NCBI RefSeq assembly: GCF_000012905.2
Contig: NC_007493.2
Location: forward strand, 1,290,001-1,322,000
Reading direction: 5' to 3'
Length of the DNA: 32,000 nucleotides
Origin: Cereibacter sphaeroides 2.4.1
GTDB taxonomy: Bacteria; Pseudomonadota; Alphaproteobacteria; Rhodobacterales; Rhodobacteraceae
The number at the start of each line of letters is the position of its first letter. Position 1 is the stretch's first letter. Both the position numbers and the translations under genes were made by a program. The notes below the pieces were generated by a model. It had not been told where the DNA came from and searched no databases. It was given only the letters and a program-made list of their open reading frames with translations. This document shows positions 18,753 to 32,000 of this stretch, piece by piece.

Positions 18753-19625
18753 TCACGGGCGGTCCTCCCGGTCGAGGTTGGTCATCACGGTGTAGAACAC
18801 CCACGAGATCAGCAGGATGACGAGGAAGTAGATGATCGAGAAGGCGGCGGCGGGGCCGAGGTCGAACTGGCCGATGGCCATCTTCACGAGATCGATCGAG
18901 AGGAAGGTGGTCGAGTTGCCGGGGCCGCCGCCCGTCACCACGAAGGGCTCGGTATAGATCATGAAACTGTCCATGAAGCGCAGCAGCACCGCGATCAGCA
19001 GCACGCCCCGCATCTTCGGCAGCTCGATGTAGCGGAACACGGCCCAGCGGCTGGCCTGATCGATCTTGGCCGCCTGATAATAGGCCTCGGGGATGGATTG
19101 CAGCCCGGCGTAGCAGAGGAGCGCCACCAGCGAGGTCCAGTGCCAGACATCCATCACGATGACCGTGACCCAGGCATCGAGCCAGTCGTTCGTGTAATTG
19201 TAGTCGACCCCGAGCGCAGTCAGCGTGCGGCCCAGAAGGCCGATGTCCACCCGGCCGAAGATCTGCCAGATCGTGCCCACCACGTTGAAGGGGATCAGAA
19301 GCGGCATCGCCATCAGGATCAGGCAGAGGCTGGCCCAGAAGCCCTTCTTCGGCATGTGGAGCGCCACGAAGATCCCGAGCGGCACCTCGATGGCAAGGAT
19401 GATCGCGGTGAAGAGCACCTGACGCCCGAGGGCGGCATGGATGCGCTCGGAGGTGACGGTCTCCTCGAACCATTCGAGGCCGGCCCAGAAGAACTCGTTA
19501 TTCCCGAACGTGTCCTGCACCGAATAGTTGACAACTGTCATCAGCGGCACGACGGCCGAGAAGGCCACGAGCGCCAGCACCGGCAGCACGAGGAACCACG
19601 CGCGGTTGTTCCAGCTCTTCTCCAT
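18753..19625 (-). CDS. ABC transporter permease (MalF/UgpA-like)
   Basis: 290 aa from MEKSWNNRAWFLVLP, with the EAA loop PEAYYQAAKIDQASRWAVFRYIELP. Its start overlaps the upstream ATPase stop (TGATG). Confidence 0.9.
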   Translation of the reverse strand: MEKSWNNRAWFLVLPVLALVAFSAVVPLMTVVNYSVQDTFGNNEFFWAGLEWFEETVTSERIHAALGRQVLFTAIILAIEVPLGIFVALHMPKKGFWASLCLILMAMPLLIPFNVVGTIWQIFGRVDIGLLGRTLTALGVDYNYTNDWLDAWVTVIVMDVWHWTSLVALLCYAGLQSIPEAYYQAAKIDQASRWAVFRYIELPKMRGVLLIAVLLRFMDSFMIYTEPFVVTGGGPGNSTTFLSIDLVKMAIGQFDLGPAAAFSIIYFLVILLISWVFYTVMTNLDREDRP

Positions 19626-23580: not shown

Positions 23581-23640
23581 GGCGTTTTGTCAATCCGGTT
23601 TTTCGAAAATGTGCGAAATGGAGAAAAAACGAACATGCGC
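23581..23640 (-). promoter_or_regulatory. AT-rich promoter/operator patch upstream of glpD
   Basis: This is the only strongly AT-rich stretch I saw in the window. It contains the perfect 10-bp palindrome TTTTCGAAAA (23600-23609). It has phased CGAA half-sites at 23604, 23614 and 23630. It also has AACGAACATG (23628-23637), resembling the E. coli GlpR operator half-site, and a TTGACA on the minus strand (23593-23588). Confidence 0.4.
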
Positions 23641-23969
23641 CGCCGCGCGTCGCGCTCTTGGGCGGGCGGGAAGCGCCGAGGGTGCCTGCGCGGCCCGGGC
23701 CGGCTGAGCGTTAGTTCACCCCGGACAGGCCAAGGGTCCGCGGCGATAGCCTTTTATCGAAGAGATGCCCGACCGGCGCTTCTCCTGTCGGGAAGGGGAG
23801 CCAGTGGGCCTCCTGTGCCTTGGCTCGCGCGTCAGAGCGTTGCACATCGCAAGGGGGGCGCGGCCGGGGCGGAGAGGCGGCGGTCCCCTCGTGCCGCGGG
23901 CCGTGATCGCAGGGGGTCTCGGCCCGCGCGGAGAGGTGGCTGCATCCCGGTGCAGGGGCACGAACGGGA

Positions 23970-23993
23970 ACGGCCGCCCCACAGGGCGGCCGT
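23970..23993 (-). terminator. Hairpin downstream of the 91-aa membrane protein gene
   Basis: ACGGCCGCCC, loop caca, GGGCGGCCGT form a perfect 10-bp stem 26 nt past the stop at 24019. The U tract is weak. Confidence 0.5.
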
Positions 23994-24018
23994 CTGCGGA
24001 GCGGGAAGATCCGTCCGG

Positions 24019-24294
24019 TCAGTTGGCGGGGGCGGTCACCGGAGGCGCCGGAGCATTGTCGGCCGAGGCCGGATCGCCTCCGCCGATGCTGCCCTGCTGC
24101 GCATCGGTCTCGACCTCGCCCGTGCGTCCGTCGATCTGGACGGCACTTCCTTCCGGGGCGTTGCCCTCTGACACCTCATGGCCGAACCACCAGACCATGT
24201 ATCCCAGCGCGAAGATGACGACGACGGCGATGCCGATCAACGGACCCCGGTGGCGACGCTTCTGCTTCTCGATGTCATTGTCGGATGCCGACAT
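24019..24294 (-). CDS. 91-aa single-pass membrane protein of unknown function
   Basis: It has a strong Shine-Dalgarno (GAGGAGGAG) followed by cga and the ATG. A basic N-terminus is followed by the TM helix LIGIAVVVIFALGYMVWWF and an acidic Gly/Ala/Pro-rich tail. Confidence 0.7.
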   Translation of the reverse strand: MSASDNDIEKQKRRHRGPLIGIAVVVIFALGYMVWWFGHEVSEGNAPEGSAVQIDGRTGEVETDAQQGSIGGGDPASADNAPAPPVTAPAN

Positions 24295-24341
24295 TCGCTC
24301 CTCCTCGGGGCTGGGCCGGCGCAGGCCGGCGTTCCGATCTT

Positions 24342-24366
24342 AACCGGCGCGGCAGCCAATGGTTCC
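24342..24366 (-). promoter_or_regulatory. ECF-type promoter candidate, GGAAC-N16-GGTT
   Basis: On the minus strand, GGAAC is at 24366-24362 and GGTT at 24345-24342. There are 47 nt to the ATG at 24294. Confidence 0.5.
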
Positions 24367-24405
24367 GGGCCTTGCGCCATCGTCGCCGGGGAGGCCCGCG
24401 CGCGG

Positions 24406-24430
24406 GGAACAAGGAGCCTCTCCGCCGGTT
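24406..24430 (+). promoter_or_regulatory. ECF-type promoter candidate, GGAAC-N16-GGTT
   Basis: GGAAC is at 24406-24410 and GGTT at 24427-24430. There are 30 nt to the ATG at 24461. It mirrors the divergent box at 24366-24342. Confidence 0.5.
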
Positions 24431-24460
24431 GCCACTGCCACCGATCAGCAGGAGCATCCC

Positions 24461-24820
24461 ATGGCCCAGACCCCGCCCGAGCGTCCGACAGAGGACCGCG
24501 TCCCGCCCGCCGGCTACACCAGCGACCGGCTCCGCCACGACATCGACCGGGGCGGGGCGGCCGACAAGGTGCCGTTCATGGACCCTGCCGCGGCGCCTTT
24601 GGGCACCGACGACGAAGCGGCCGGCACGCCGCCGAGCGCCGAGCAGATTGCCCGTGCCCGCGAGATGGAAGCGCGGCCCGCGGACCGGTCGGCCAATGCC
24701 GCGGCCCGGCCGCGCACGGTGGGCGAGCTCGCGGGCAATCAGGAGCGCCGCGGCATGCGCCCGATCCTGATCTTCGGCGCGATCATGGTCGTGGTGGTGA
24801 TCCTCGTCGTGGCCCTCTGA
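24461..24820 (+). CDS. 119-aa C-terminally anchored protein of unknown function
   Basis: It starts at MAQTPPERP, with an AGGAG Shine-Dalgarno 6 nt upstream. It has the conserved-looking block DRGGAADKVPFMDPAAAPLGTDDEAAG and the C-terminal TM helix ILIFGAIMVVVVILVVAL. The earlier ATG at 24359 would run through the promoter boxes. Confidence 0.7.
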   Translation: MAQTPPERPTEDRVPPAGYTSDRLRHDIDRGGAADKVPFMDPAAAPLGTDDEAAGTPPSAEQIARAREMEARPADRSANAAARPRTVGELAGNQERRGMRPILIFGAIMVVVVILVVAL

Positions 24821-24851
24821 CGGCAGGCGACGCTGCAGGACGACAAGCGAA

Positions 24852-24876
24852 AGGCCGGCAGATCCTCTGCCGGCCT
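24852..24876. terminator. Bidirectional terminator between the 119-aa protein gene and gcd
   Basis: AGGCCGGCAG, loop atcct, CTGCCGGCCT form a perfect 10-bp stem. TTTCG follows on the minus strand and TTCG on the plus strand. Confidence 0.65.
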
Positions 24877-24914
24877 TCGCCATGATGGAGACGAGGTTCC
24901 GCCAAGCTCCGGGA

Positions 24915-27260
24915 TCAACCCTCCGAGCCGTCGGGCAGGGCGTAGGCGATCACATAGTCGCCCGGTTTCGTGCCGACCGAGCCGTGCCCGCCCGCCACGA
25001 TCACCACGAACTGCCGGCCGTCCTGCTCGTAGGTCATCGGCGTCGACTGGCCGCCCGCGGGCAGCCGCGCCTGCCAGAGCTGATCGCCCGTGGTCACATC
25101 GTAGGCGCGCAGGTAGTCGTCGACCGCCGCTCCGAGGAAGGCCACGCCGCCGCGCGTGACGATCGGCCCGCCGATCCCCGGCACGCCCACCTTGAAGGGC
25201 AGCGGCAGGGGCGTCATGTCGCGCACGGTGCCGTTGCGGTGCATGTAGGCGATCTCTCCGGTGCGGAGGTCCGCCCCCGCGACGAAGCCCCACGGCGGCG
25301 CCGAGCAGGGCACGCCGAGCGGCCCGAGGAAGGGCCCCATGATGACGCCGTAGGGCGCGCCCTCGTTGCGGTTCAGGCCCTGTTCGCTGGCCTTCTGATC
25401 TGCGCCGGGCGGCGGGATGTCCTCGGCCGGAACCAGCTGGCTCGTGAAGGGCAGGTAGGTGGGCATGCCGAACATCACCTGCCGCTCGGGATCGACGGCG
25501 ACGGAGCCCCAGTTGAAGGTGCCGAAATTGCCCGGATAGACGATGGTGCCGTTCAGCGACGGGGGCGTGTAGCGGCCCTCGTAGTTCAACCGGTGATACT
25601 GGATCCGGCAGGCGAGCTGGTCGTAGAGCGTGACGCCCCACATGTCCTTCTCGCGCAGCGCCTCGGGTTTGAAGCTCAGCGCCGAGGTGGGCTGCGTCGG
25701 GGCAGGGGTCTCTTCGCGCAGAGCGCCCTCCTGCGGGGCGGGCTCTTCGGTGACGGGCAGGATCGGCTCGCCCGTCTCGCGGTTGAGCACATAGATGTCG
25801 CCCTGCTTCGTCGGCTGCACGAGCGCGGGCACCGTCTGACCGTCGATGTCGAGATCGATCAGAACGGGCTGGGCGGGCACGTCCATGTCCCACAGGTCAT
25901 GGTGCACGGTCTGGAACACCCAGGCCTTCTGACCCGTCGCCACGTCGAGCGCCACGACCGAGGAGGAATGTTCCTCGACGGCGGGCGAGCGGTTGAAGCC
26001 CAGCTGGTCGGGGACCTGGTTGCCGAGCGGGATGTAGACGAGGCCGCGTTCCTCATCGACCGAGAAGACCGACCAGGAGTTGGGCGAATTTGCGGTATAG
26101 GTCTCGCCGTTCATCCAGTCGATGGGGGCGGTCTTGTCGGGGTTGGCGCTGTCCCAGTTCCACAGGAGCGCCCCGGTGTTGGCATCGAAGGCCCGGATCA
26201 CGCCCGACTGCGAATAGACCGAGAAATTGTCGTTGACCGCGCCGCCGATGATGATCCGGCCTCCGACCGCCACGGGCGGGGAGGTGGAATAGTAGAAGCC
26301 TGCCGGGGTGTAGGGCATCCCGTTCTCGAGATGGAGCGTACCCTCGTCGGCGAAGAAGGTGCAGACCGCGCCGGACTTTGCGTCGAGCGCGATCAGCCGC
26401 GCATCGGCCGTCGGCAGATAGACCCGCTCGGCGCAGAGCTCTCCCTCGGCGCGTGCCGGATCCCGCCAGTAGGTCACGCCGCGGCAGGTCTGGTGCTGCC
26501 GGTCGGACTCGAGCCCGGAGCGCGCGTCGAAGCGCCAGGCTTCCTTGCCGGTCGCCGCATCGAGCGCGATGGCCAGATCGTGCGGGGTGCAGATGTAGAG
26601 ACGGTCGGCGACCTTCAGCGGCGTGACCTGATAGGTGGTCTCGGTCACGTCCTGCGGCAGCTTCACATCGCCGGTCTGATACTGCCAGACCTGCTCGAGC
26701 TCGGCGACATTCTGGATGTTGATCTGTTCGAGCGGGCTGTAGCGCTGCCCGTACTGCGTGCGGCCGTACTGGTGCCACTCGCCGGGAGGCGCGGAGGGGC
26801 CGAGATCGGGCTCGGCGCTGACCACTTCCGTCGGCAGCGAGCCTGCATGTCCCGCTTCGTCTCCGGTCCATGACCAGATGGCGGCCCCGATGGCCGCCAG
26901 AAGGGGCAGGGCCAAGGGCAGGCCGGGCGCGGGGCGGCCGTCCTCGGTCAGCAGCTGCCGCCGCATGAAGGGCAGGTAGAGCCAGATGCCCAGAAGCGCG
27001 ATGATGCCGCCGCGGGGAATGAGTTCCCACCAGTCGAAGCCCACTTCCCAGACGGACCAGACGAGCGCGCCGAGGATGAGGCCGCCATAGATCCATTCGG
27101 CGGAGGAGGAGCGGCGGAACACCTGCCATGCCGTCAGCAGCATGAGGGCTCCGGCCACGAGGTAGAACCAGCTCCCGCCCAGAACGGCCAGCCAGGCGCC
27201 CGGGATGAGGAGGCCCAGCCCGGCGAGGGCAAGGACGATGGCGGTCAGGGTAGCGGTCAA
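24915..27260 (-). CDS. gcd: Membrane-bound PQQ-dependent glucose (aldose) dehydrogenase
   Basis: 781-aa ORF. Five N-terminal TM helices align with E. coli Gcd (GGSWFYLVAG..., VWEVGFDWWELIPR). A PQQ beta-propeller follows. The start codon is TTG at 27260, preceded by GAGGAG 6 nt upstream. Confidence 0.92.
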   Translation of the reverse strand: MTATLTAIVLALAGLGLLIPGAWLAVLGGSWFYLVAGALMLLTAWQVFRRSSSAEWIYGGLILGALVWSVWEVGFDWWELIPRGGIIALLGIWLYLPFMRRQLLTEDGRPAPGLPLALPLLAAIGAAIWSWTGDEAGHAGSLPTEVVSAEPDLGPSAPPGEWHQYGRTQYGQRYSPLEQINIQNVAELEQVWQYQTGDVKLPQDVTETTYQVTPLKVADRLYICTPHDLAIALDAATGKEAWRFDARSGLESDRQHQTCRGVTYWRDPARAEGELCAERVYLPTADARLIALDAKSGAVCTFFADEGTLHLENGMPYTPAGFYYSTSPPVAVGGRIIIGGAVNDNFSVYSQSGVIRAFDANTGALLWNWDSANPDKTAPIDWMNGETYTANSPNSWSVFSVDEERGLVYIPLGNQVPDQLGFNRSPAVEEHSSSVVALDVATGQKAWVFQTVHHDLWDMDVPAQPVLIDLDIDGQTVPALVQPTKQGDIYVLNRETGEPILPVTEEPAPQEGALREETPAPTQPTSALSFKPEALREKDMWGVTLYDQLACRIQYHRLNYEGRYTPPSLNGTIVYPGNFGTFNWGSVAVDPERQVMFGMPTYLPFTSQLVPAEDIPPPGADQKASEQGLNRNEGAPYGVIMGPFLGPLGVPCSAPPWGFVAGADLRTGEIAYMHRNGTVRDMTPLPLPFKVGVPGIGGPIVTRGGVAFLGAAVDDYLRAYDVTTGDQLWQARLPAGGQSTPMTYEQDGRQFVVIVAGGHGSVGTKPGDYVIAYALPDGSEG

Positions 27261-27293
27261 GGTGGGCTCCTCATCTGGCGGCGTCGCCTCTGC

Positions 27294-27319
27294 AACGGGC
27301 CTCGGGGCGACTGGGTTCC
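27294..27319 (-). promoter_or_regulatory. ECF/EcfG-type promoter, exact GGAAC-N17-CGTT, upstream of gcd
   Basis: On the minus strand, GGAAC is at 27319-27315 and CGTT at 27297-27294. There are 33 nt to the TTG start. Confidence 0.65.
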
Positions 27320-27404
27320 GCTACGGAGCTTCTTCCGGCTGATCCGAGAGAAGAACGAGATGCGCCTTGCAGAGAGTGCCCTGCTCTCCCGGCCACACCG
27401 TCTT

Positions 27405-27442
27405 CCCCAAAAGGAAATGGCGCGCGGTTTCCCGCGCGCCAT
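27405..27442 (-). terminator. Intrinsic terminator of the PRC-barrel gene
   Basis: ATGGCGCGCGG, loop tttc, CCGCGCGCCAT form an 11-bp stem (27417-27442). On the minus strand it is followed by TTTCCTTTTGGGG. Confidence 0.7.
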
Positions 27443-27462
27443 CCGTCACCCTAGGGAAGGGA

Positions 27463-28032
27463 TCACTCGGCCGCCGTATATTCCGGCAGGGCCTCGAGTT
27501 CCTCGCGCGACATGGGCACATAGACCCGGACGTCGCTCTGGTCCTCGTTGGTGTAGATCTTCAGATCCTCGAAGGGCACGGCGACGTTGCGCGCGCCGAT
27601 GCCGAGGAAGCCGCCGACATCGAAGATCACCTGTTCGACCTTGCCGTCCTCGGCCAGAACGAAGTCCGAGATGTCGCTCACGGATTCATCGTTCATCGAG
27701 TAGACATCGGCGTCCTGCAGGTCTTCGGCCGTCATCGGCTCGCCGGCATAGGCCGTGTAGCCTTCCGGGATCTGCATGCCTTCAGCCATGCCGGTGTCCG
27801 TGCCGGTCATGCCCGTGCCGGTGGCGCCGTCGGTCGCGGCCGGCGCAGTGTCGCCCGCAGCCGGAGCCATCGTGTCGGTGCCGGTCGCATCCATGCCGGT
27901 GGCCGGCGGGGTGGTTTCGGTCGTCGCCGCGGGCGGAGTGGTCGCGTCAGGGGTGGTCGTCGCATCCTGAGCCAGGGCGGCGTAAGCGGTGGTGGAAGCC
28001 AGAAGTGCCGAGAGGGCAATAACTTTTTTCAT
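27463..28032 (-). CDS. Secreted PRC-barrel domain protein with a Thr/Ala/Pro-rich linker
   Basis: 189-aa ORF with the signal peptide MKKVIALSALLASTTAYA. The PRC-barrel core is DADVYSMNDESVSDISDFVLAEDGKVEQVIFDVGGFLGIGARNVAVPFEDL. Confidence 0.85.
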   Translation of the reverse strand: MKKVIALSALLASTTAYAALAQDATTTPDATTPPAATTETTPPATGMDATGTDTMAPAAGDTAPAATDGATGTGMTGTDTGMAEGMQIPEGYTAYAGEPMTAEDLQDADVYSMNDESVSDISDFVLAEDGKVEQVIFDVGGFLGIGARNVAVPFEDLKIYTNEDQSDVRVYVPMSREELEALPEYTAAE

Positions 28033-28095
28033 TGTAGCGATCCTTTCGCCTTGGGAGACTAATTGGACAGAGCCGTTTGGGCCTGCTGCATGTCC

Positions 28096-28120
28096 AACGG
28101 GTCCCGGCGAGGTTGGTTTC
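28096..28120 (-). promoter_or_regulatory. ECF-type promoter candidate, GAAAC-N16-CGTT, upstream of the PRC-barrel gene
   Basis: On the minus strand, GAAAC is at 28120-28116 (one mismatch to GGAAC) and CGTT at 28099-28096. There are 63 nt to the ATG at 28032. Confidence 0.4.
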
Positions 28121-28252
28121 CCCTCTCAAAGCGACGAATCCGGGTAAGGGAGGGTGGGGCGGAAACCCGCCGAAAGTCGCCCGTGAGATCGGCGAAAAGA
28201 CGCCGATATGCCGCCTTCGGGGCAAGGCGGCAGCCTGTATCGGGATCGCGTG

Positions 28253-28276
28253 GGAACCACCGGGCCCTTGCCCGTT
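28253..28276 (+). promoter_or_regulatory. Orphan ECF-like box, GGAAC-N15-CGTT, with no annotated gene downstream
   Basis: GGAAC is at 28253-28257 and CGTT at 28273-28276 on the plus strand, inside a non-coding region of about 400 nt. The spacer is one nt short of consensus. Confidence 0.25.
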
Positions 28277-28390
28277 GCGGAGCGCTCGGCAGCGGCGTCC
28301 CCACGGTCCTTCTCCTACCGGCTTGCCGAGGGCTCTCAATGCGTGCCGTCGTTCTGACGGGAACTTTCTGCGGCACAGACGGCGAAGGAT

Positions 28391-28422
28391 GAAAAAAGCG
28401 GCGCGCCCGGAGGCGCGCCGCT
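28391..28422 (-). terminator. Intrinsic terminator of the BON / secreted-protein transcription unit
   Basis: AGCGGCGCGCC, loop cgga, GGCGCGCCGCT form an 11-bp stem (28397-28422). On the minus strand it is followed by TTTTTTC, 25 nt after the stop at 28447. Confidence 0.8.
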
Positions 28423-28446
28423 CAAGCCCTGCGCAATGTGCGAGGA

Positions 28447-29241
28447 TCAGAAGGACTCGACCATCTGGCAGATCTGCGTCCAGGAGGTGAGCGAGACCGA
28501 CGCCTGGTCGAATTCCCGCGTGCCAGGCGTCGCATCGGTGCCGGCCTCGCTGCCTGCCGCCGTGCCCGTGTCATTGGATGCGGCGAGGCTGCCTTCGCCG
28601 GTGCTTGTGGTGGCGGTGTCGGCGGCCGGGTTGGTGCTGCCTCCGGTGCCCTGCTCGGCGGGGGTTCCGCTGGCGGCCTGGTCGGCGACCGTCACGCGTT
28701 CATCCGAGGTGCCGGGGCCCGCGGTGGTGCCGGTCTCGCTTTCGACGACATTGCCGCCCGCATCGGCATCGGTGACGGTGCTGCTGCCGGACTGGGCCGC
28801 GCGGTCGCCCGTGGGCTGGCCGACGGGGCTAGCCGCGCCGCCGCTCGGGGCCGCGCCGGCCTCTGCCTCCTGATCCGAGAGGCCGCCCTCGGCCCCTGTG
28901 GGTGTCGTGTCAGAGGTGCCGCCCTCGCCGCCGGAGGTCGCGGCGCCCGAGCCGGCGGCCGCATCCGGGGCCGAACCGGCGGTCGCGCCCTCGGTGCCGA
29001 AGGCTGCGCAATCGTCGCGCACCTGCTGCTTCTGATCTTCCGACAGCGACTCCCAGCTCGACCGCACCTCGCCGTCGGTGCGCAGGGTCATGGTCCCGCC
29101 CGGGTTGAAGAACGTGTCGACGATCGGCGCGTCCCAGTCGCGCCCCATCGTCGTGCCTTGCGCCGTCGTGGTCTGGGCCGTGGCGGCGCTGGCAAGAAGC
29201 GCAGCGGCGCCGGCGAGGGTCAGGGGTCGGAACAGGATCAT
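28447..29241 (-). CDS. Secreted low-complexity (Gly/Thr/Ala/Ser/Asp-rich) protein with conserved-looking termini, unknown function
   Basis: 264-aa ORF with the signal peptide MILFRPLTLAGAAALLASAATAQ. An ordered N-terminal segment contains DDCAAF and the C-terminal segment contains WTQICQMVESF, one Cys each. A GAGAGGA Shine-Dalgarno lies upstream. Confidence 0.75.
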   Translation of the reverse strand: MILFRPLTLAGAAALLASAATAQTTTAQGTTMGRDWDAPIVDTFFNPGGTMTLRTDGEVRSSWESLSEDQKQQVRDDCAAFGTEGATAGSAPDAAAGSGAATSGGEGGTSDTTPTGAEGGLSDQEAEAGAAPSGGAASPVGQPTGDRAAQSGSSTVTDADAGGNVVESETGTTAGPGTSDERVTVADQAASGTPAEQGTGGSTNPAADTATTSTGEGSLAASNDTGTAAGSEAGTDATPGTREFDQASVSLTSWTQICQMVESF

Positions 29242-29363
29242 GTCTCATCCTCTCTGTCTGGGGTGAGCCCGACGGGGTGTCGTCCGGGCAAAGCGGCCCT
29301 CCGGGCCATCATTCTCTGTCGGCTCCGGGCCGGGCCATGCCGCCCCGCCCGGAACCGAGCGGG

Positions 29364-30275
29364 TCAGGCCTGCGTGCCGCGCTTGCCGCTCTGGTCGCCG
29401 AGACCGGCGTCGGTGCCGCCGGAGCCCGAGAGCCCGCTGCCCGACTGACCGGACGAGCTTCCGCCGAGCGGGGCCGTTCCTGAGCCGCCCGTGCCGCTCT
29501 CGCGGACGCGCAGGTTGTTCTGCACATGGCGCACGCCCGAGACCGTATCCGCGCAATCTTCTGCACGGCGCTTGTCAAACTTCGTCGAAACGTGACCGTT
29601 GAGCGTGACTTCGCCGCCCGCCACCGAGACGTCGATGTCGGAGGCGTCGAGGCGCGGATCGTCGCTGAGCCGGTCGTTCACATCGTCGTGGATGCGCGTG
29701 TCCGACCGCTGGTAACCGCGCGGACCCTTGCCGCGGTGATCCTCCTCGCGGCGACGGCCCGCCTCGTCGTCGCCCATCCAGGACATGACCTCGTCCGCCG
29801 CACGATCCATGAAGCCGCGTTCGCCGGCGGAATCGTAGAAGCGGGGGCCGCCCCGTCCGTGGCGCTCGTCATAGCTCTGGCCGCGGCGGTCCCATTCCCG
29901 GCCGATCTGCGGGCCGTAGCCCCAGGAGCGCTCGTCCTGCGACCGGCGCTCCGATCCGTAGTCGCGATCCGAGCGGTCGCTGCCGCCGCGCCGGTCGTCG
30001 CGGTCGCGCGGATCGAACCCGGCGGCGCCGAAGCCGTAGCCGCTCGCGGCATCCATTCCGCCGCCGGAAGAGCGGTCGCGCTCTGCCCCGCGCGCCTCGT
30101 CCTGACCCCGGTCCTGATACCGGGCATCGAAGCGATCGCGATTGCGATCCTCGGGGCCGCCGCGCATGCGCGGGTCGTCTTCGCGGTTGCCCCGTGACCG
30201 GTCGCCACCATAGCGCTGCATGTCGGCATCCTCGTCCCAGTTCCGGTTCCGGGCGTCAAATCTCGATTGTGCCAT
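29364..30275 (-). CDS. BON-domain protein with an SWFGD-like motif and an Arg/Asp/Gly-rich disordered N-terminal half
   Basis: 303 aa from MAQSRFDARNRNWDED, with the Shine-Dalgarno GGAGGAGGA. The motif is MSWMGDDEAGRRREEDH. The BON domain is DDVNDRLSDDPRLDASDIDVSVAGGEVTLNGHVSTKFDKRRAEDCADTVSGVRHVQNNLRV. The upstream part of the 29364-30545 ORF was not used. Confidence 0.85.
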   Translation of the reverse strand: MAQSRFDARNRNWDEDADMQRYGGDRSRGNREDDPRMRGGPEDRNRDRFDARYQDRGQDEARGAERDRSSGGGMDAASGYGFGAAGFDPRDRDDRRGGSDRSDRDYGSERRSQDERSWGYGPQIGREWDRRGQSYDERHGRGGPRFYDSAGERGFMDRAADEVMSWMGDDEAGRRREEDHRGKGPRGYQRSDTRIHDDVNDRLSDDPRLDASDIDVSVAGGEVTLNGHVSTKFDKRRAEDCADTVSGVRHVQNNLRVRESGTGGSGTAPLGGSSSGQSGSGLSGSGGTDAGLGDQSGKRGTQA

Positions 30276-30341
30276 GTCTGATCCTCCTCCGAGTTGCGCG
30301 GGAGAGACGGCACGGTCTCCGCGTGTTGAAACGGCTCGGGA

Positions 30342-30366
30342 AACGGACGGTCGAAGCGAATGTTCC
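30342..30366 (-). promoter_or_regulatory. ECF/EcfG-type promoter, exact GGAAC-N16-CGTT, upstream of the BON gene
   Basis: On the minus strand, GGAAC is at 30366-30362 and CGTT at 30345-30342. There are 66 nt to the ATG at 30275. Confidence 0.7.
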
Positions 30367-30672
30367 CTCGCGGGCCGCGCGGCGGGGGCGGCTCCGGGCC
30401 CGGGACAGCGACTGCCGTCAACCGCAGGCACGGTCTGCAACCTCGCATGTGCGAGTATGTCGAGCAGCCACAGCGCCCCGCGTTGCAAGGAGGAACGGCC
30501 GGAGTGCCGGGACGGGGGAGGGAGCGGCGGCCTCTTCCCATGCAAGCGGCGGCTCGCATCCGGTCACTCTTCGGTGAAGGCTGAAGGGAACCATCGGCGG
30601 AGGCTCTGCATTGACGGCCAGAGAGCAGGAGCCGGCATCGGCTCTTTCCGAAAAAGTCGCAGAGGACTTCCC

Positions 30673-30846
30673 ATGACCTCGTCAGTATCCCGGCCGCCGC
30701 CGGGCCAGATGCCCGAGCCTCCCCCGGGCCCGGGTCCGGATGTAACGCCCGGCCCGCTGCCCGTCCCGGGCGAAAGCCCCGACCTGCCGCCGACCGAGCC
30801 GGATCTTCCGGGCGGTCCCGGCGTCCCGCCGACCCTTCCCGTTTAA
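30673..30846 (+). CDS. 57-aa proline-rich small protein (candidate)
   Basis: The ATG at 30673 is preceded by AGAGGA with a 6-nt spacer. The product is MTSSVSRPPPGQMPEPPPGPGPDVTPGPLPVPGESPDLPPTEPDLPGGPGVPPTLPV with a TAA stop. It is the tail of the 30220-30846 ORF. GC3 is high, but that is weak evidence in this genome. Confidence 0.45.
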   Translation: MTSSVSRPPPGQMPEPPPGPGPDVTPGPLPVPGESPDLPPTEPDLPGGPGVPPTLPV

Positions 30847-30880
30847 TCGATCCTCTCGTCAACCTACCAAGGAGCTACCA

Positions 30881-30955
30881 GTGAACAGCATCATTTATAT
30901 CGTGGGCCTCGTGGTCATCGTCATTGCGATCCTCTCTTTCCTCGGCCTGCGCTGA
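30881..30955 (+). CDS. 24-aa hydrophobic single-TM micro-protein (candidate, below the ORF-track cutoff)
   Basis: The GTG at 30881 is preceded by a perfect AAGGAG (30869-30874) with a 6-nt spacer. The product is VNSIIYIVGLVVIVIAILSFLGLR with a TGA stop. It begins 35 nt after the Pro-rich ORF. Confidence 0.55.
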   Translation: MNSIIYIVGLVVIVIAILSFLGLR

Positions 30956-31280
30956 GGCAGGGGAACCGCCCTATCCGTGCCAGTGACCGGCGCCAAACTG
31001 CCGGAGACGAGTGTTCTATTGTCAGTGTTTGAGTAGCGAGTGACCGGGCCCTGCGACCATCGCGGGGCCTTCGGCGTTGAAGCCGACGGCCGCTCGGGAG
31101 GCTTGTTGCGAGACCTCCGGCACCGAGGCCACGGCCTAGTCAGGGAGGCTCGCTGCGAGGCTCCGAAAAGGATTTCGTCTGCTTGGCATGCGGATGGAAC
31201 CTTGGCCTTGTCCCTCACCTGAAAAAATCCACCGGCGTGGCGCGTGCCTGATGCGGTAGGCGCGACGCGGGCGGAAGACG

Positions 31281-31661
31281 TCAGCCTTGCAGCAGCTTGT
31301 CGAGCAGCGTTGCAAGAAGCACCGCCGTGACGGGCTTCTGGAGGACGTCGATCTGCTGGAACTGCTCCGGGATGGCATCCGCACTTTCGCCGGTCACGAA
31401 GGCGAAGGGGATCCCGCGCGTCCCGAGCGTGCGGGCGAGCGCGAAACAGGTGCCATCGTCGAGCCGCAGATCCAGAAGGGCCGCATCCACGGTCTGATGG
31501 GCGATCAGGCGCAGCGCCTCGGCTTCGGTCCGCGCCGGGCCGACCGTTTCGAACCCCGATGCCGTCAGCTCGTCCACCATCGTCATGGCGAGGATCAGAT
31601 CGTTCTCGGCCACGAGGATGCGGGGCAGTCCGGTTTTCGCGCCCGAGGCGGTCTGGGTCAT
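31281..31661 (-). CDS. Single-domain response regulator (CheY-like receiver only)
   Basis: 126 aa from MTQTASGAKTGLPRILVAENDL, with a GGAGA Shine-Dalgarno 8 nt upstream of the ATG at 31661. The phospho-acceptor context is AALLDLRL. The conserved FVTG (Thr) and QKP (Lys) are present. There is no output domain. The ORF-track start at 31688 is a GTG. Confidence 0.85.
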   Translation of the reverse strand: MTQTASGAKTGLPRILVAENDLILAMTMVDELTASGFETVGPARTEAEALRLIAHQTVDAALLDLRLDDGTCFALARTLGTRGIPFAFVTGESADAIPEQFQQIDVLQKPVTAVLLATLLDKLLQG

Positions 31662-31884
31662 GGCGAAAATCTCCGTCGCTTTGCCCACAAGGGTCCGTAA
31701 GGCGACATGGTTCCCGTCTCGGCCCCGCTTTCGGCGCTTTTGCGCGGCCGGGATTCAGCAGGAGTCTCCCTTCTCCGGAGCCTGATGCGCGGGCGCGCCG
31801 AGGCTGCCTCGGTCGCGCGGACTGCCGTCGTTCGTACTCCTCGCAAATCGCATCCCTGCCTGCGGGACTGAAGCGCGCCCGCGG

Positions 31885-31910
31885 GGGAACGGTTCGGGTC
31901 CGCGGTACGT
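31885..31910 (+). promoter_or_regulatory. ECF/EcfG-type promoter, exact GGAAC-N17-CGTT, facing the right edge
   Basis: GGAAC is at 31885-31889 and CGTT at 31907-31910. There are 61 nt to the ATG at 31972. It is divergent from the response-regulator gene. Confidence 0.65.
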
Positions 31911-31971
31911 TTGCCCGAGAGGCGGCGGCGGAGTTTCCGGTCAGACGCTCACGCTTGATGCATGGAATGAC

Positions 31972-32000
31972 ATGGCGGAATTGCTTCAGGACTTTCTCAG
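31972..32000 (+). CDS. 5' end of an unidentified CDS leaving the window (MAELLQDFL...)
   Basis: The ATG at 31972 is open to the window end. Only 9 codons are visible and the Shine-Dalgarno is weak. It is called mainly because an exact ECF promoter lies upstream. Confidence 0.3.

Follow-up and report, generated by a model that had tools for sequence, protein, structure and literature searches.

What directs the transcription of the mostly uncharacterised genes at the right-hand end of a 32,000-nucleotide (nt) stretch of the Cereibacter sphaeroides 2.4.1 genome (contig NC_007493.2, positions 1,290,001 to 1,322,000; this whole stretch is hereafter the window)? A preliminary description of this DNA pointed to six copies of GGAAC-N16/17-CGTT, exact or with one mismatch, and proposed that they are promoter boxes of a general-stress-type regulon read by EcfG, an extracytoplasmic function (ECF) sigma factor of the ECF15 group. 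Our analysis leads to a related answer. Very probably, RNA polymerase bound to an EcfG-type (ECF15-like) sigma factor uses the boxes as promoters, and they are densely packed around RSP_2681, a non-canonical ecfG paralogue about 5 kb past the right edge of the window. We infer that they fire in response to stress and are served by the canonical EcfG (RSP_1272), by RSP_2681, or by both.

The GGAAC-N16(-17)-CGTT consensus is documented for EcfG in Rhizobium etli and Sphingopyxis granuli, which bears out its original attribution. A pattern search of both strands of the window returned exactly three exact matches, the number first reported. Dinucleotide-preserving shuffles of the window contain 0.16 such matches on average, in keeping with the expectation of fewer than one by chance, and none of 100 shuffles reached three. 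As a rough estimate, the Poisson probability of three or more matches is about 6e-4; some 5% of both strands falls within 100 nt 5′ of a same-strand start, and the chance of three such placements is, again roughly, 1e-4. All three matches are indeed intergenic and precede a start codon on their own strand, by 33, 66 and 60 nt. The boxes upstream of gcd and of the BON-domain gene lie precisely where they had been placed, whereas the one at the right edge was off by one nucleotide (31886-31911 is correct, not 31885-31910). The one-mismatch boxes at 24342-24366 (minus strand), 24406-24430 (plus) and 28096-28120 (minus) are all present as well. Thus the six boxes stand, but their number does not: a seventh good box at 30587-30612 (plus) had been missed, an eighth at 31689-31714 (minus) is doubtful, and the island runs past the window edge.

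When one mismatch is allowed, the window contains 11 matches with N16 and 11 with N17, against about 5.4 and 4.8 expected. Placed on the gene map, nearly all of the matches other than the island boxes fall within coding DNA or have no gene ahead of them. They are about as numerous as expected by chance, and the island boxes account for the excess. All seven good boxes (three exact, and four with one mismatch, namely two with GGTT, one with CATT and one with GAAAC) are intergenic and on the strand of the gene that they precede, with the -10 block 30-66 nt before the start codon. There is no credible box in the first 23.6 kb of the window, which is occupied by housekeeping genes and a glycerol-3-phosphate transport/glpD cluster. 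Two other matches were rejected: GGAAC-N17-CGTG at 19587-19612 (minus), which sits between two genes of the glycerol-3-phosphate ABC transporter operon, at the start of the permease gene, and was taken as chance, and a one-mismatch match at 29351-29376 (plus), which faces no gene.

Seven putative transcription units, each with a box, lie within 7.6 kb: a 91-aa transmembrane (TM) protein, a 119-aa TM protein, gcd, a PRC-barrel protein, a BON protein with a 264-aa protein, a 57-aa with a 24-aa open reading frame (ORF), and mgtC (Table 1). Terminators follow the 264-aa and PRC-barrel genes, and a search of 23600-32000 for sigma-70-like promoters found none; the region therefore reads as a succession of short units with a single box at the head of each. 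The box at 30342-30366 (minus) probably heads an operon in which the 264-aa protein gene is co-transcribed with the BON gene, and the 57-aa proline-rich ORF and the 24-aa peptide gene probably share a transcript. The gene identities, namely pyrroloquinoline quinone (PQQ) dehydrogenase, PRC barrel, BON plus SWFGD and receiver, were confirmed by Pfam and NCBIfam.

The proteins of the window are identical to the C. sphaeroides 2.4.1 entries ABA78827-ABA78836, and the island corresponds approximately to RSP_2673-2677. We followed it across the edge in six C. sphaeroides genomes, using the 10 kb that flank the receiver gene to either side. Beyond the edge lie the full MgtC gene, an 84-aa ORF, LigD (RSP_2679; PMC7183636), a 56-aa ORF, a 71-aa ORF on the opposite strand, and an ECF sigma gene, RSP_2681. 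Exact GGAAC-N16-CGTT boxes stand 5′ of ligD and 5′ of the sigma gene in all six genomes, the latter box (GGAACCCGCCCGGTCAGGCGGCGTT) being directly upstream of RSP_2681. The product of this gene has Sigma70_r2, PhyR_sigma2 and Sigma70_r4_2 domains, and its match to PhyR_sigma2 (Pfam PF22029) scores 58 bits against a cutoff of 27 (7e-16). Among solved structures the best match is 5uxx_A (E 1.6e-35), presumably a Bartonella EcfG-NepR complex, and the protein also matches 9by5_A (7e-6), a 271-aa response-regulator chain that is PhyR-like by length and domain order. An EcfG-type sigma factor is thus encoded beside the island, and the canonical phyR (RSP_1274), nepR-like (RSP_1273) and ecfG (RSP_1272) genes, with a kinase (RSP_1271), were described elsewhere in the genome of the same strain, under the name Rhodobacter sphaeroides 2.4.1 (PMC5830050). 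That study mentions RSP_2681 as also annotated as RpoE, with no stress role reported to date.

Homologues of RSP_2681 that are 62-72% identical are common in Rhodobacterales and present in some Hyphomicrobiales. Each of three sampled orthologues, from Martelella, Roseivivax and Falsirhodobacter, has GGAAC-N16/17-CGTT upstream, and equivalent boxes precede the gene in Cereibacter johrii and C. azotoformans. The neighbours of the three sampled orthologues are of stress type (gcd, BON, HWE kinases or topoisomerase IB), and in two of the three there is a short ORF 5′ of the sigma gene, divergent in Falsirhodobacter and co-directional in Roseivivax. As a separate observation, the Martelella mediterranea locus (L009, 3400-7600) has eight GGAAC-N16/17-(C/G)(G/A)TT elements within 12.5 kb around the sigma orthologue, in a cluster that adjoins DUF892, topoisomerase IB and small ORFs, which points to a similar promoter-dense island with a different order in M. 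mediterranea.

Selection on the boxes was assessed by comparison with C. johrii and C. azotoformans, the only species recovered with the BON protein (90% and 68% identical to that of C. sphaeroides, respectively), in addition to the three sigma-orthologue loci. All nine promoters are kept in both species, a count that is biased, and to that extent counts against us, since several orthologous boxes were first located by the motif pattern; upstream alignments anchored at the start codons independently place the boxes in register at every unit. Between C. sphaeroides and C. azotoformans, 80 of 81 box positions are identical but only 82 of 147 spacer positions (56%; Fisher one-sided p 1.6e-14), and the only box to differ is that of gcd, where C. 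azotoformans has TGTT for CGTT. The ligD spacer may be 16 or 17 nt long, and so may the mgtC spacer among strains, one of which has 16 rather than 17. Fixed blocks with free spacers are what would be expected of sigma recognition elements, and this pattern argues that the boxes are under selection. It also bears on an alternative explanation, namely that the matches are chance, non-functional, or operator sites for a DNA-binding regulator. The motif specifies only nine bases, and about ten one-mismatch matches are expected per window, commonly in coding DNA. Nevertheless, this explanation can hardly be correct given the shuffling result for exact matches, the promoter-like placement of all hits, the invariant blocks and free spacers in three species, a 16/17 tolerance typical of sigma recognition, and the lack of sigma-70-like promoters for these genes.

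Inside the window, the island also carries a candidate regulator. The best solved relatives of the receiver protein are SdrG (5ieb, 2e-13) and then the two-component response regulator 2lpm, which is presumably Sinorhizobium meliloti Sma0114. It has PFAFVTGE where SdrG has PFVFATGG, and by its sequence it appears to be an SdrG-type (FAT GUY) single-domain response regulator. SdrG is a general-stress-response regulator of Sphingomonas melonis. The upstream sequences given for RSP_2677 and RSP_6064 in the supplement of Imam et al. 2015 match window positions 31700-31880, and these two tags therefore belong to the receiver/MgtC pair.

How such an island might be switched on can be proposed from characterised alphaproteobacteria. 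Stress-activated kinases would phosphorylate PhyR (RSP_1274), and phosphorylated PhyR would capture NepR (RSP_1273) and so free EcfG (RSP_1272). EcfG would then transcribe from GGAAC-N16/17-(C/G)GTT promoters, including that of its paralogue RSP_2681. By the same analogy, RSP_2681 probably reads the same motif and would reinforce or specialise the response, and it may be modulated by the NepR-like small ORFs and the SdrG-like regulator. A narrower version of this explanation, contained within it, is that the local paralogue alone reads the promoters as a self-contained, PhyR-independent module, with its NepR-like partner or partners and the SdrG-like regulator and with no part for RSP_1272. 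Nine boxes cluster in some 14 kb around RSP_2681, and the remaining 24 kb of the window have none; RSP_2681 and its three sampled orthologues have their own box and none has an adjacent phyR; two small conserved ORFs flank RSP_2681; the island genes are not in RSP_1272 co-expression clusters; and the non-canonical EcfG2 of R. etli is largely independent. However, the R. etli paper cites Caulobacter and Sphingomonas as cases in which the paralogue works downstream of the primary EcfG, both S. granuli paralogues transcribe the same promoters, the boxes exactly match the general EcfG consensus, and no sequence feature separates RSP_2681 from RSP_1272 as the reader of the promoters. We therefore consider an exclusive role for RSP_2681 possible but doubtful.

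A more specific form of this idea appears unlikely. It holds that RSP_2681, the two NepR-like ORFs and the SdrG-like regulator constitute a second, PhyR-independent partner-switch module that controls the island, with its envelope proteins, gcd, MgtC and LigD, instead of the canonical cascade. If true, it would explain the mild phenotypes of the R. sphaeroides phyR mutant, and such modules may be widespread in Rhodobacterales, because the three sampled orthologues (Falsirhodobacter, Roseivivax and Martelella) have no adjacent phyR.

Several points weigh against reading the boxes as promoters of an EcfG-type stress island. GGAAC/GTT-like elements serve other ECF groups too, for example those of mycobacterial SigE and SigH, and the sigma factor cannot be identified from the motif alone; many ECF groups share AAC in the -35 and CGT or GTT in the -10. 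The boxes might serve an ECF sigma factor of C. sphaeroides that is not of the EcfG type but happens to use a GGAAC/CGTT-like motif, and other ECF-type genes are listed, as sigma24 (RSP_1014, RSP_3095 and RSP_4275) or as RNA polymerase sigma factor (RSP_0415), in the supplement of Imam et al. This alternative is highly improbable: the sole sigma gene nearby is EcfG-like and is preceded by the same box, the full GGAAC-N16/17-CGTT form and the types of product fit EcfG regulons, and the neighbouring regulator belongs to the SdrG type, which is tied to the EcfG pathway. A further point concerns the neighbours of RSP_2681. No PhyR-type gene is present within 10 kb of it in six strains, nor at the three orthologous loci, and it is thus a non-canonical copy. 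By eye, both the 56-aa and the 71-aa ORF resemble NepR, but the former matches Pfam NepR (PF18557) only below threshold (E 2.4e-4, 21 bits; cutoff 25.7), and the latter, which is divergent, has no Pfam match, yet it resembles a NepR-like ORF of Martelella. PDB searches with the two ORFs gave nothing meaningful.

Published expression clusters are another point against this reading. In the network of Imam et al. 2015, RSP_2673-2676, RSP_2679 and RSP_2680 belong to no expression or sequence cluster, RSP_2677 and RSP_6064 appear in an unrelated T-rich motif cluster, and the co-expression clusters of RSP_1272 comprise trehalose genes and the phyR locus without the island. The same network ties RSP_2681 to clusters with unrelated T-rich motifs. 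A literature search found neither transcription start site, RNA-seq or mutant data for the island genes nor a paper describing the island; Imam et al. 2015, which leaves out the six island genes looked up and ties RSP_2681 to unrelated motifs, does not amount to an earlier description of it. Finally, the term general stress may overstate the role of the PhyR cascade in C. sphaeroides, because the R. sphaeroides phyR mutant lacks a broad stress phenotype: its only defects are under membrane stress and in surviving ultraviolet (UV) light in the dark, and no regulon was defined (PMC5830050). The checks made on its refuting conditions all favoured the original proposal. Of that proposal of a general-stress-type island, the EcfG-type promoters are retained on sequence grounds, and the general-stress label calls for caution, the cascade being reported as specialised for membrane stress and dark UV.

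Taken with these reservations, the EcfG-type reading of the boxes supplies concrete candidates for a regulon that is so far undefined in C. sphaeroides; as of a 2018 study, the EcfG regulon had been experimentally defined in no member of the Rhodobacterales. At least nine conserved candidate targets emerge, comprising envelope and periplasmic proteins, gcd, MgtC and LigD, along with a candidate regulatory module of RSP_2681, the NepR-like ORFs and the SdrG-like regulator. Envelope proteins and LigD as targets would be compatible with the membrane-stress and dark-UV sensitivity of the phyR mutant, and the island thereby offers a possible reason for these phenotypes. This is a sound annotation of a well-known kind of system, and it does not reveal a new mechanism.

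Some features deserve mention beyond their coordinates. At the seventh box, GGAACC..TC..CG...GCTCTGCATTGAC is kept in three species. The 24-aa peptide that follows in the same unit has identical amino acids in the three species although its DNA has synonymous changes. The 5′ leader of the PRC-barrel gene (28033-28095, minus) is near-invariant in three Cereibacter species, although the encoded protein shares only 64% identity with that of C. azotoformans; the leader has no Rfam match and folds no better than shuffles (z -0.21), and an Rfam scan of the entire window at gathering thresholds gave no matches. Outside the window, between the 56-aa NepR-like ORF and ligD, there is a conserved palindromic element (L004 5598-5623). 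Its sequence is GGAAC-N17-GGTT along the ligD strand and GGAAC-N17-TGTT along the nepR-like/sigma strand, and it might serve as promoter for the nepR-like ORF, for a small RNA, or for both. In gene tables the same locus, L004, seemed to have lost the PRC-gcd-TM genes, but this was a scaffold gap rather than a polymorphism: in GCA_009767555.1 a run of 100 N (L004 6759-6858 in window orientation) stands in place of window 23933-28138, the part from the 91-aa TM gene to the PRC gene.

Table 1. Boxes, genes and terminators of the island in window coordinates, with two ORFs outside the window in L004 coordinates; conservation refers to C. sphaeroides, C. johrii and C. azotoformans.
Feature	Position	Strand	Gene served and distance to start	Matches and conservation
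91-aa protein, one predicted TM helix	24019-24294	-		No family match; orthologues 76-89% identical in the two other species
Box GGAAC-N16-GGTT	24342-24366	-	91-aa TM protein gene; 47 nt before ATG 24294	Blocks kept and spacer divergent in C. johrii and C. azotoformans
Box GGAAC-N16-GGTT	24406-24430	+	Divergent 119-aa protein gene; 30 nt before ATG 24461	Kept in the other two species
119-aa protein, C-terminal hydrophobic helix	24461-24820	+		No family match
gcd, membrane-bound PQQ glucose/quinate dehydrogenase	24915-27260	-		Pfam PF01011, 7e-224; ABA78827 (strain 2.4.1)
Exact box GGAAC-N17-CGTT	27294-27319	-	gcd; 33 nt before TTG 27260	Blocks identical in C. johrii; -10 is TGTT in C. azotoformans
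Terminator-like hairpin, 3′ of PRC gene	27420-27437	-		
PRC-barrel protein, secreted, 189 aa, N-terminal signal-like sequence	27463-28032	-		Pfam PF05239, 4.9e-10
Box GAAAC-N16-CGTT (alternatively GGAAA-N17-CGTT from 28121)	28096-28120	-	PRC-barrel gene; 63 nt before ATG 28032	Blocks invariant in three species
Strong intrinsic terminator, 12-bp stem and T run, closing the BON/264-aa unit	28396-28423	-		
264-aa secreted low-complexity protein	28447-29241	-	No own box found	No family match (Pfam/NCBIfam)
303-aa hydrophilic protein, SWFGD and BON domains	29364-30275	-		Pfam BON 6e-20; NCBIfam SWFGD 2e-13
Exact box GGAAC-N16-CGTT	30342-30366	-	BON/SWFGD gene; 66 nt before ATG 30275	Kept in three species
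Box GGAAC-N17-CATT (seventh)	30587-30612	+	57-aa and 24-aa ORF pair; 60 nt before the 57-aa ORF	
57-aa proline-rich ORF	30673-30846	+		81-95% identical in other species
24-aa hydrophobic peptide gene VNSIIYIVGLVVIVIAILSFLGLR	30881-30955	+		Unannotated; AAGGAG ribosome-binding site
Single-domain response regulator, 126 aa, SdrG-like	31281-31661	-		Pfam receiver domain only; presumably RSP_2677 or else RSP_6064
Doubtful weak box GGAAC-N17-CCTT	31689-31714	-	Response-regulator gene	GGAAC in register in three species; -10 is CCTT/TCTT, not GTT
Exact box GGAAC-N17-CGTT	31886-31911	+	MgtC-family gene; 60 nt before ATG 31972	Blocks kept in three species and six strains
MgtC-family gene, 5′ end (full protein 250 aa)	31972-32000	+		PF02308, 1.4e-36 on the full protein from L004
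71-aa ORF, outside window	L004 4906-5121	+	Flanks RSP_2681 promoter	Conserved in the genus
56-aa ORF, outside window	L004 5155-5322	-	Flanks RSP_2681 promoter	Conserved in the genus

The components of the island resemble known systems to different degrees. Like other SdrG/FAT GUY regulators, among which we presume S. meliloti Sma0114 also belongs, the response regulator is a stand-alone receiver that aligns best with S. melonis SdrG, but its PFxFATGY motif is imperfect and its own box is weak, with a CCTT -10. RSP_2681 is comparable to the non-canonical EcfG paralogues, namely Caulobacter SigU, R. etli EcfG2, S. granuli EcfG1/EcfG2 and the multiple EcfG/NepR proteins of Methylobacterium extorquens, in that it likewise lies away from phyR and behind an EcfG-type box. 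Extra non-canonical copies of this kind are widespread, with a hierarchy that differs among species, and the arrangement of RSP_2681 matches that of S. granuli nepR2-ecfG1 and of the extra copies in R. etli, although its NepR-like partners bear only a weak resemblance to NepR. In the EcfG (ECF15) regulons of S. melonis (EcfG), Caulobacter (SigT), Sinorhizobium (RpoE2) and R. etli (EcfG1), the same GGAAC-N16/17-(C)GTT occurs within about 100 nt of starts, and there as here the sigma gene itself lies behind the motif. The kinds of target also overlap, as had been anticipated from the products: the experimentally defined S. melonis regulon includes PRC-barrel proteins, small secreted or membrane proteins and a non-homologous end joining enzyme (Ku there, LigD here), and its promoters include the -10 variants GGTT and CATT. 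The C. sphaeroides system differs from these regulons in that its phyR mutant has no broad stress phenotypes, in that gcd and mgtC are not among the targets in the regulon lists compared, and in that its targets are unusually dense around a paralogous sigma gene.

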